A DNA stretch of 64,000 bases from Escherichia coli O127:H6 str. E2348/69 (lineage in GTDB: Bacteria > Pseudomonadota > Gammaproteobacteria > Enterobacterales > Enterobacteriaceae), in NCBI RefSeq assembly GCF_000026545.1, contig NC_011601.1. The stretch is one strand, 5' to 3'. Each line of letters begins with the position of its first letter. Within the stretch, counting starts at the first letter, position 1. Positions 18,001-21,000 of the stretch are shown one piece after another. Position numbers: made by a program.

Positions 18001-21000
18001 CAATTGGCCTTGCTGGAAGCCAACACGCGCCGCCCGAATTCGAACTATTCCGTTGATTACTGGCATCAACATGCCATTCGCACGGTAATCCGCCATCTTT
18101 CCTTCGCAATGGCACCGCAAACGCTGCCCGTTGCTGAAGAATCTTTGCCTCTTCAGGCGCAACATCTTGCATTACTGGATACGCTCAGCGCGCTTCTGAC
18201 CCAGGAAGGCACGCCGTCTGAAAAGGGTTATCGCATTGATTATGCGCATTTTACCCCACAAGCAAAATTCAGCACGCCCGTCTGGATAAGCCATGCGCAA
18301 GGCATCCGTGCTGGCCCTCAACGCCTCAGCTAACAACAATAAACCTTTACTTCATTTTATTAACTCCGCAACGCGGGGCGTTTGAGATTTTATTATGCTA
18401 ATCAAATTATTAACTAAAGTTTTCGGTAGTCGTAACGATCGCACCCTGCGCCGGATGCGCAAAGTGGTCAACATCATCAATGCCATGGAACCGGAGATTG
18501 AAAAACTCTCCGACGAAGAACTGAAAGGAAAAACGGCAGAGTTCCGCGCGCGTCTGGAAAAAGGCGAAGTGCTGGAAAACTTGATCCCGGAAGCCTTCGC
18601 CGTGGTGCGTGAAGCCAGTAAGCGTGTTTTTGGCATGCGCCACTTCGACGTACAGCTGCTCGGCGGTATGGTTCTTAACGAACGCTGCATCGCCGAAATG
18701 CGTACCGGTGAAGGTAAAACCCTGACCGCAACGCTGCCTGCTTACCTGAACGCACTAACCGGTAAAGGCGTACACGTCGTTACCGTCAACGACTACCTGG
18801 CGCAACGTGACGCCGAAAACAACCGTCCGCTGTTTGAATTCCTTGGCCTGACTGTCGGTATCAACCTGCCGGGCATGCCAGCACCGGCAAAGCGTGAAGC
18901 CTACGCTGCTGACATCACTTACGGTACGAACAACGAATACGGCTTTGACTACCTGCGCGACAACATGGCGTTCAGTCCTGAAGAACGTGTACAGCGTAAA
19001 CTGCACTATGCGCTGGTGGACGAAGTGGACTCCATCCTGATCGATGAAGCGCGTACACCGCTGATCATTTCTGGTCCGGCAGAAGACAGCTCGGAAATGT
19101 ATAAACGCGTGAATAAAATTATTCCGCACCTGATCCGTCAGGAAAAAGAAGACTCCGAAACCTTCCAGGGCGAAGGCCACTTCTCGGTGGATGAAAAATC
19201 TCGCCAGGTGAACCTGACCGAACGTGGTCTGGTTCTGATTGAAGAACTGCTGGTTAAAGAAGGCATCATGGATGAAGGGGAGTCTCTGTACTCTCCGGCC
19301 AACATCATGCTGATGCACCACGTAACGGCGGCGCTGCGCGCTCATGCGCTGTTTACCCGTGACGTCGACTACATCGTTAAAGATGGTGAAGTTATCATCG
19401 TTGACGAACACACCGGTCGTACCATGCAGGGCCGTCGCTGGTCCGATGGTCTGCACCAGGCTGTGGAAGCGAAAGAAGGTGTGCAGATCCAGAACGAAAA
19501 CCAGACGCTGGCTTCGATCACCTTCCAGAACTACTTCCGTCTGTATGAAAAACTGGCGGGGATGACTGGTACTGCTGATACCGAAGCTTTCGAATTCAGC
19601 TCCATCTATAAGCTGGATACTGTCGTTGTTCCGACCAACCGTCCAATGATTCGTAAAGATCTGCCGGACCTGGTCTACATGACTGAAGCGGAAAAAATTC
19701 AGGCGATCATTGAAGATATCAAAGAACGTACTGCGAAAGGCCAGCCGGTGCTGGTGGGTACAATCTCCATCGAAAAATCGGAGCTGGTGTCAAACGAATT
19801 GACCAAAGCCGGTATTAAGCACAACGTCCTGAACGCCAAATTCCATGCCAACGAAGCGGCGATTGTTGCTCAGGCAGGTTACCCGGCTGCGGTGACTATC
19901 GCGACCAACATGGCGGGTCGTGGTACCGATATTGTGCTCGGTGGTAGCTGGCAGGCAGAAGTTGCCGCGCTGGAAAATCCGACTGCAGAGCAAATTGAAA
20001 AAATTAAAGCCGACTGGCAGGTACGTCACGATGCGGTACTGGCAGCAGGTGGCCTGCATATCATCGGTACTGAACGTCACGAATCCCGTCGTATCGATAA
20101 CCAGCTGCGCGGTCGTTCTGGTCGTCAGGGGGATGCTGGTTCTTCCCGTTTCTACCTGTCGATGGAAGATGCGCTGATGCGTATTTTTGCTTCCGACCGA
20201 GTATCCGGCATGATGCGTAAACTGGGTATGAAGCCAGGCGAAGCCATTGAGCACCCGTGGGTGACCAAAGCGATTGCCAACGCCCAGCGTAAAGTTGAAA
20301 GCCGTAACTTCGACATTCGTAAGCAACTGCTGGAATATGATGACGTGGCTAACGATCAGCGTCGCGCCATTTACTCCCAGCGTAACGAACTGCTGGATGT
20401 CAGCGATGTGAGCGAAACCATCAACAGCATTCGTGAAGATGTGTTCAAAGCGACCATTGATGCCTACATTCCGCCACAGTCGCTGGAAGAAATGTGGGAT
20501 ATTCCGGGGCTGCAGGAACGTCTGAAGAACGATTTCGACCTCGATTTACCAATTGCCGAGTGGCTGGATAAAGAACCAGAACTGCATGAAGAGACGCTGC
20601 GTGAGCGCATTCTGGCGCAGTCCATCGAAGTGTATCAGCGTAAAGAAGAAGTGGTTGGTGCTGAGATGATGCGTCATTTCGAGAAAGGCGTCATGCTGCA
20701 AACGCTTGACTCTCTGTGGAAAGAGCACCTGGCTGCGATGGACTATCTGCGTCAGGGTATCCACCTGCGTGGCTATGCACAGAAAGATCCGAAGCAGGAA
20801 TACAAACGTGAATCGTTCTCCATGTTTGCAGCGATGCTGGAGTCGTTAAAATATGAAGTTATCAGCACGCTGAGCAAAGTTCAGGTACGTATGCCTGAAG
20901 AGGTTGAGGAGCTGGAACAACAGCGTCGTATGGAAGCCGAGCGTTTAGCGCAAATGCAGCAGCTTAGCCATCAGGATGACGACTCTGCTGCCGCAGCTGC

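Follow-up and report, generated by a model that had tools for sequence, protein, structure and literature searches.

We find that the secM gene of Escherichia coli O127:H6 str. E2348/69 encodes histidine instead of glutamine at residue 158, within the ribosome arrest motif of SecM. We suggest that the locus is probably an ordinary secM-secA control unit carrying a rare clade-specific missense allele which is neutral or nearly neutral, with arrest and secA control preserved. The allele is a rare lineage variant that is already in public databases and is not novel. All coordinates given below refer to the window, by which we mean the whole 64,000-nt stretch of the E2348/69 chromosome that was analysed.

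The secM locus of E2348/69

The secM gene and the 24 kb between 8000 and 32000 were each compared with the chromosome of E2348/69 (EPEC O127:H6), and both were 100% identical to it. The gene order is lpxC-secM-secA-mutT with the whole set on the plus strand, which matches the synteny of the SecM locus. The genes and elements considered here are the following:

16674-17591, plus strand: lpxC (RefSeq annotation of the identical E2348/69 record)
17821-18333, plus strand: secM coding sequence, cis-regulator of secA translation (open reading frame, translation, RefSeq annotation and Pfam PF06558)
18268-18318, plus strand: arrest motif, F150 to P166 (translation; motif definition from PMC10951299)
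18269-18314, plus strand: predicted hairpin over the arrest-motif codons, unsupported (folding only)
18292-18294, plus strand: codon 158, CAT for His, with the variant base T at 18294 (sequence and alignment)
18313-18318, plus strand: Gly165 (P-site) and Pro166 (A-site) codons, unchanged in E2348/69 (sequence)
18317-18330, plus strand: predicted 5′ arm of the helix sequestering the secA Shine-Dalgarno (SD) sequence, starting inside the Pro166 codon (folding and RNAalifold)
18373-18386, plus strand: predicted 3′ arm of the same helix, over the SD-like GAG of secA at 18384-18386 (folding and RNAalifold)
18395-21100, plus strand: secA, the regulated downstream gene, 901 codons (open reading frame and RefSeq annotation)
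21160-21558, plus strand: mutT (RefSeq annotation)

The secM gene has a GTG start, 170 codons and a TAA stop; lpxC lies upstream of it, and secA follows immediately downstream on the same strand after a spacer of 61 nt. The protein scores 194.1 bits against Pfam PF06558 (cut-off 25) with residues 24-167 covered, and in the alignment its residues 1-157, the signal-peptide region included, are identical to those of K-12 SecM. The N-terminal signal sequence of K-12 SecM engages the Sec machinery, and this releases the arrest.

The arrest motif has been defined as 150-FxxxxWIxxxxGIRAGP-166, in which Arg163 and Pro166 are critical and residue 158 is one of the 'x' positions, and the ribosome arrests with the Gly165 codon in the P-site and that of Pro166 in the A-site (PMC10951299). 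In E2348/69 the F150 codon begins at 18268, Pro166 is encoded by CCT at 18316-18318, and the protein ends in the tail QRLS before the TAA. The canonical arrest residues (F150, W155, I156, G161, I162, R163, A164, G165 and P166), which the initial annotation had listed as essential, are each found in the translation. A scan of 17400-18700 against Rfam at E≤1 returned no match, and scanning the leader for promoters and terminators gave nothing beyond the expectation from shuffled sequence. Homology, synteny, the intact motif, the signal region identical to K-12 and the predicted SD helix all place the E2348/69 locus in the SecM family as a normal member.

The His158 substitution

The initial annotation had read His at residue 158 from CAT at 18292-18294, and had given WISQAQ as the reference sequence. 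Direct reading and translation bear out the first point with exact coordinates, and the second is right as well: when aligned, the reference SecM has Gln and not His, and Gln158 is found in K-12 MG1655 as well as in the three close relatives SC477, RM14723 and Nissle 1917. Within secM, a G>T transversion at 18294 (CAG to CAT) is the sole DNA difference from the nearest relative.

K-12 SecM (b0097, SECM_ECOLI) is the product of the same gene at the same locus, has the same length, and is identical at 168 of 170 residues (99%). The strains agree in the motif residues, in the signal-peptide region and in the mRNA helix predicted to sequester the SD, and the two differences from K-12 to E2348/69 are Gln158 to His (18294 G>T) and Thr170 to Ser (18329, C versus G). 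The second of these had not been flagged earlier; Ser170 is common to the other relatives compared and is not specific to E2348/69. The common B2-type SecM, WP_000014320.1 (in Nissle 1917, RM14723 and SC477, for example), shares Ser170, is identical at 169 of 170 residues and differs from the E2348/69 protein at residue 158 only. The deposited E2348/69 SecM (Swiss-Prot SECM_ECO27, WP_000014318.1, CAS07650.1) is identical in sequence to the protein translated here.

Rarity and origin of the allele

The rarity of the allele was assessed with a query of 41 bases centred on the variant base, using megablast with a 28-base exact word, so that matches span the variant. Codon 158 was CAG in at least 5,342 of 5,426 complete E. 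coli genomes and CAT in three, each of which is a version of E2348/69, while CAC and CAA were found in none of the 5,426. The remaining 79 complete genomes differ at a base neighbouring 18294; E. coli 2020CK-00188, one example, carries A159S (GCG>TCG, 18295) together with a synonymous GGC>GGT change in codon 161 (18303). A literature search on SecM Q158H, Q158A and Q158C found no report of these substitutions among the papers covered.

As the three complete carrier genomes are versions of one strain, the change could have come from faulty sequencing or assembly, or have been acquired by a single laboratory stock. This is refuted by independent carrier assemblies and is as good as certain not to be the explanation. 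The three complete genomes are separate assemblies, the exact 170-residue His158 protein occurs on about 130 contigs (each of two Gln forms occurs on at least 1,000), and the allele is present in at least five further NCBI assemblies, three of which (L015, L016 and L013) also depart from the window sequence elsewhere in the vicinity. The suggestion in the initial annotation that His158 is a natural variant thus holds, the allele being carried by three complete E2348/69 assemblies and by independent assemblies of related isolates.

One of these assemblies, L013 (GCA_041513105.1), has CAT on a very different 5′ secA haplotype, which suggested that His158 might have arisen recurrently. L013 nevertheless has the E2348/69 clade markers 17928C and 18778C, and it has 19252T and the lpxC haplotype in common with L015. 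We also observed in L013 a patch of some 25 differences toward the 5′ end of secA (aligned to window 18446-19075), which partly match the haplotype of more distant strains and are consistent with a recombination tract inside secA. Given the shared clade markers and the foreign secA patch we rejected recurrence; a history in which the allele originated once, before E2348/69 and its close relatives diverged, with later recombination in secA, would be simpler and more parsimonious.

Compared over 24 kb with its six nearest complete-genome relatives, E2348/69 has 173-239 differing sites, and at 73 sites it differs from all six. These 73 include 47 synonymous and 11 non-synonymous changes, of which Q158H is one, with ten others in the same 24 kb. 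With 73 such sites, one change of this kind in the 513-bp secM gene is expected from drift.

Some other variants in the neighbourhood deserve mention. Codon 35 of secA (18499) encodes Ile (ATT), versus Met (ATG) in K-12 and several relatives, and this Ile35 form of SecA (WP_000905766.1) is also found in strains 382634_2f, EC12 and Z1323HEC0067. Between lpxC and secM, some 155 nt before secM begins, a T-run at 17662-17669 consists of eight T in the window and in L014 to L017, nine in L013 and in five of the six relatives with complete genomes, and ten in one. The idea that private changes cluster in the operon was dropped, since Ile35 is not private and the T-run is a homopolymer of variable length. 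Further downstream, the 14-codon yacM (23241-23285 in the relatives) has in E2348/69 a 1-bp insertion, an extra A at 23279 near its end; the stop is lost and the frame continues for at least 40 codons, reading MIIKTLKMSARKRKLMKRS… versus MIIKTLKMSARKRN and a stop in the relatives. The annotations of all six relatives include yacM; that of the E2348/69 record does not.

Conservation of position 158 in the SecM family

Among representatives of close SecM clusters, Gln158 was present in 117 of 124, and the sole His was that of the E2348/69 protein. More distant representatives had Gln in 40 of 64, with Lys, Ala, Arg, Ile, Leu, Ser and Glu also seen and His in two (…WLAHVKGIRAGP and …LLAHTGGIRAGP). 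Scanning species-representative genomes with a DNA pattern yielded 85 genuine secM sites, which encode Gln in 70 cases and Lys in the other 15 (14 from Photorhabdus, one from Leclercia), and His158 in none. GIRAGP is essentially invariant among the SecM sequences compared. The Photorhabdus-type SecM has this module as in E2348/69, with a residue other than Gln three positions before Gly161, and the two distant His proteins likewise combine His at the equivalent of 158 with the same GIRAGP arrest module; in both types the surrounding 'regulator' sequence is far more divergent, and they were compared by sequence alone. Judged from these alignments, position 158 is far more conserved than a free 'x' would imply, yet it is replaceable, and His falls within the range of residues used by the family.

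Single sequences in the collection, among the close relatives, have W155R, Q158L or P153S in an otherwise E. coli-like motif. W155R is expected to impair arrest.

Residue 158 in the arrested ribosome

In the 2.0 Å structure published in 2024, residue 158 ends a seven-residue α-helix in the tunnel that starts at Thr152; the paper prints the residue as 'Glu158', the sequence having Gln (PMC10951299). This tunnel helix belongs to an N-terminal 'regulator module' that is distinct from the RAG/P 'arrest module', and its unfolding has been proposed as the first barrier to force-induced release (PMC10951299). Contacts are given in that structure for Ser157, Ala159 and Gln160, and none, direct contacts with rRNA included, for residue 158 (PMC10951299). 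A structure from 2015 had modelled the Q158 side chain hydrogen-bonded to A752 (PMC4737659). Q158 has been termed 'non-essential', although with Q158P compaction does not occur and arrest is lost (PMC6340945, citing Woolhead 2006).

These observations raise the alternative of a functional retuning, in which His158 would alter the stability or the contacts of the tunnel helix, and hence, modestly, the strength of arrest or the force needed for release. The set-point of SecA in the EPEC clade would then be shifted, possibly adaptively. The position of residue 158 at the end of the Thr152-158 helix, with the release barrier proposed for it, speaks for such an effect, as do the modelled bond to A752, the loss of arrest in Q158P and a conservation of Gln well beyond that expected of an 'x'. 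We nevertheless find retuning unlikely. The exchange of Gln for His is far milder than that of Gln for Pro; distant SecMs have His, Lys, Arg or Ala at this position, with Lys158 in all 14 Photorhabdus sites and in the Leclercia genome; the allele arose just once, in a small clade, and did not recur; and the ten other non-synonymous changes relative to the same six relatives are of a like kind. That the imidazole of His158 could retune arrest strength or add sensitivity to pH or charge, and in this way shift the SecA set-point, we hold to be a slightly more doubtful proposition.

We instead favor the reading in which the substitution is neutral or nearly so. Since residue 158 is not part of the RAG/P arrest module, we expect arrest to be retained. 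The initial annotation had supposed that the change sits at a tolerated position, and we infer the same from three lines: a successful pathogen clade has kept the allele, His occupies the equivalent position in two distant SecM lineages, and the site is outside the RAG/P module.

Effects at the RNA level

The base change could also act on the mRNA rather than on the peptide, with the U allele weakening a hairpin over the arrest-motif codons and so altering local translation speed or the folding of the leader. Folding of the E. coli sequence does predict such a hairpin (18269-18314), in which G18294 of the common allele pairs with C18282. The T allele breaks this pair: the predicted minimum free energy (MFE) goes from -40.5 to -35.0 kcal/mol, so that some 5.5 kcal/mol is lost, and the base drops in pairing probability from 1.0 to 0.03. 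Across 72 species, however, RNAalifold did not recover the hairpin, its covariation score was reached by 317 of 500 shuffles, and the pair, between 154.3 and 158.3 (codon and codon position), is non-standard in 17 of the 72. We therefore rejected the hairpin on the RNAalifold result and the pair counts.

A second point in favor of an RNA-level effect comes from codon usage. Gln158 is encoded by CAG in all 70 Gln-bearing species and never by CAA, which is also absent at this codon from the complete E. coli genomes, whereas both codons occur at Gln160 (17 of 60 sites have CAA). Of the Gln codons in these genomes, 85-88% are CAG, and at that usage the naive probability of 70 in 70 is about 1e-4, a figure that ignores the kinship of the species, which are related and not independent. 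Given the high CAG usage and this kinship, the apparent invariance of the third base is only suggestive, and the arrest-motif hairpin that we tested does not explain it. The helix that would sequester the secA SD is predicted to be unaffected, as folding gave this helix identical MFE and pair probabilities in the T and G alleles; its core pairs are kept in 93.6% of cells over the 72 species, and RNAalifold retains the core. Taken with the lack of an Rfam family in the region, these results make an effect at the RNA level very improbable.

Just upstream of the secA SD we observed a short hairpin (window 18364-18378) that reads CUCCGC…GCGGGG in Escherichia. A hairpin at the same position reads CUGCCC…UGGGG in seven Enterobacter, one Lelliottia, one Silvania and a MAG, and UCUGC…GCAGG in one Buttiauxella, an Enterobacter sp., Cedecea sulfonylureivorans and Dryocola. 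Such differing yet complementary sequences would suggest compensatory change, although the MAFFT alignment is gapped there (columns 106-121).

The G>T change also creates an out-of-frame ATG at 18293-18295, which opens a reading frame of 30 codons ending at a TGA (18383-18385) in the SD region of secA. A new small ORF coupled to the translation of secA might be imagined here, since it is found in the T allele only and its stop overlaps the 3′ arm of the SD helix. The ATG is not preceded by an SD-like sequence, it falls within an ORF that is itself translated, no relatives are known for the predicted product, and a frame of this kind is a trivial result of a shift in reading frame. We judge the ORF to be incidental, and a function for it next to inconceivable.

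Discussion

With regard to how the unit would work in E2348/69, we envisage the same course as in K-12. SecM would be translated, and its nascent chain would stop the ribosome while Gly165-tRNA fills the P site and Pro166-tRNA the A site. Stalled in this way, the ribosome would occupy the 5′ arm of the helix by which the secA SD is otherwise masked, which would allow secA to be translated, and an active Sec machinery would pull on the SecM signal peptide and thereby release the arrest. His158 would replace the last residue of the tunnel helix (Thr152-158), in the 'regulator' part and outside the RAG/P module, and arrest would be kept with at most a small shift in its strength or in the release force. 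The allele would stem from one event in the ancestor that E2348/69 shares with its close relatives, and drift is the most likely reason why it persists.

We infer from sequence comparison and published structures that arrest is retained and that the change is neutral or close to it. This reading is supported by the intact motif, by a protein otherwise identical to the common B2-type SecM, and by variation at the neighbouring 'x' position in E. coli (A159S). It is weakened by the strong conservation of Gln158, by the position of the residue at the end of the helix, by the Q158-A752 bond and by the loss of arrest in Q158P.

SecM, the textbook example of an arrest peptide that senses force, is in wide use as a tool, and the importance of Q158H beyond this field is small. 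If the variant behaves as wild type, as we expect, it would merely confirm that His is tolerated at residue 158. Q158H is present in the prototype EPEC strain and is thus a ready-made natural variant for the idea that the tunnel helix tunes the release force. Were retuning true, the allele would be a natural probe of the 'regulator module' model.
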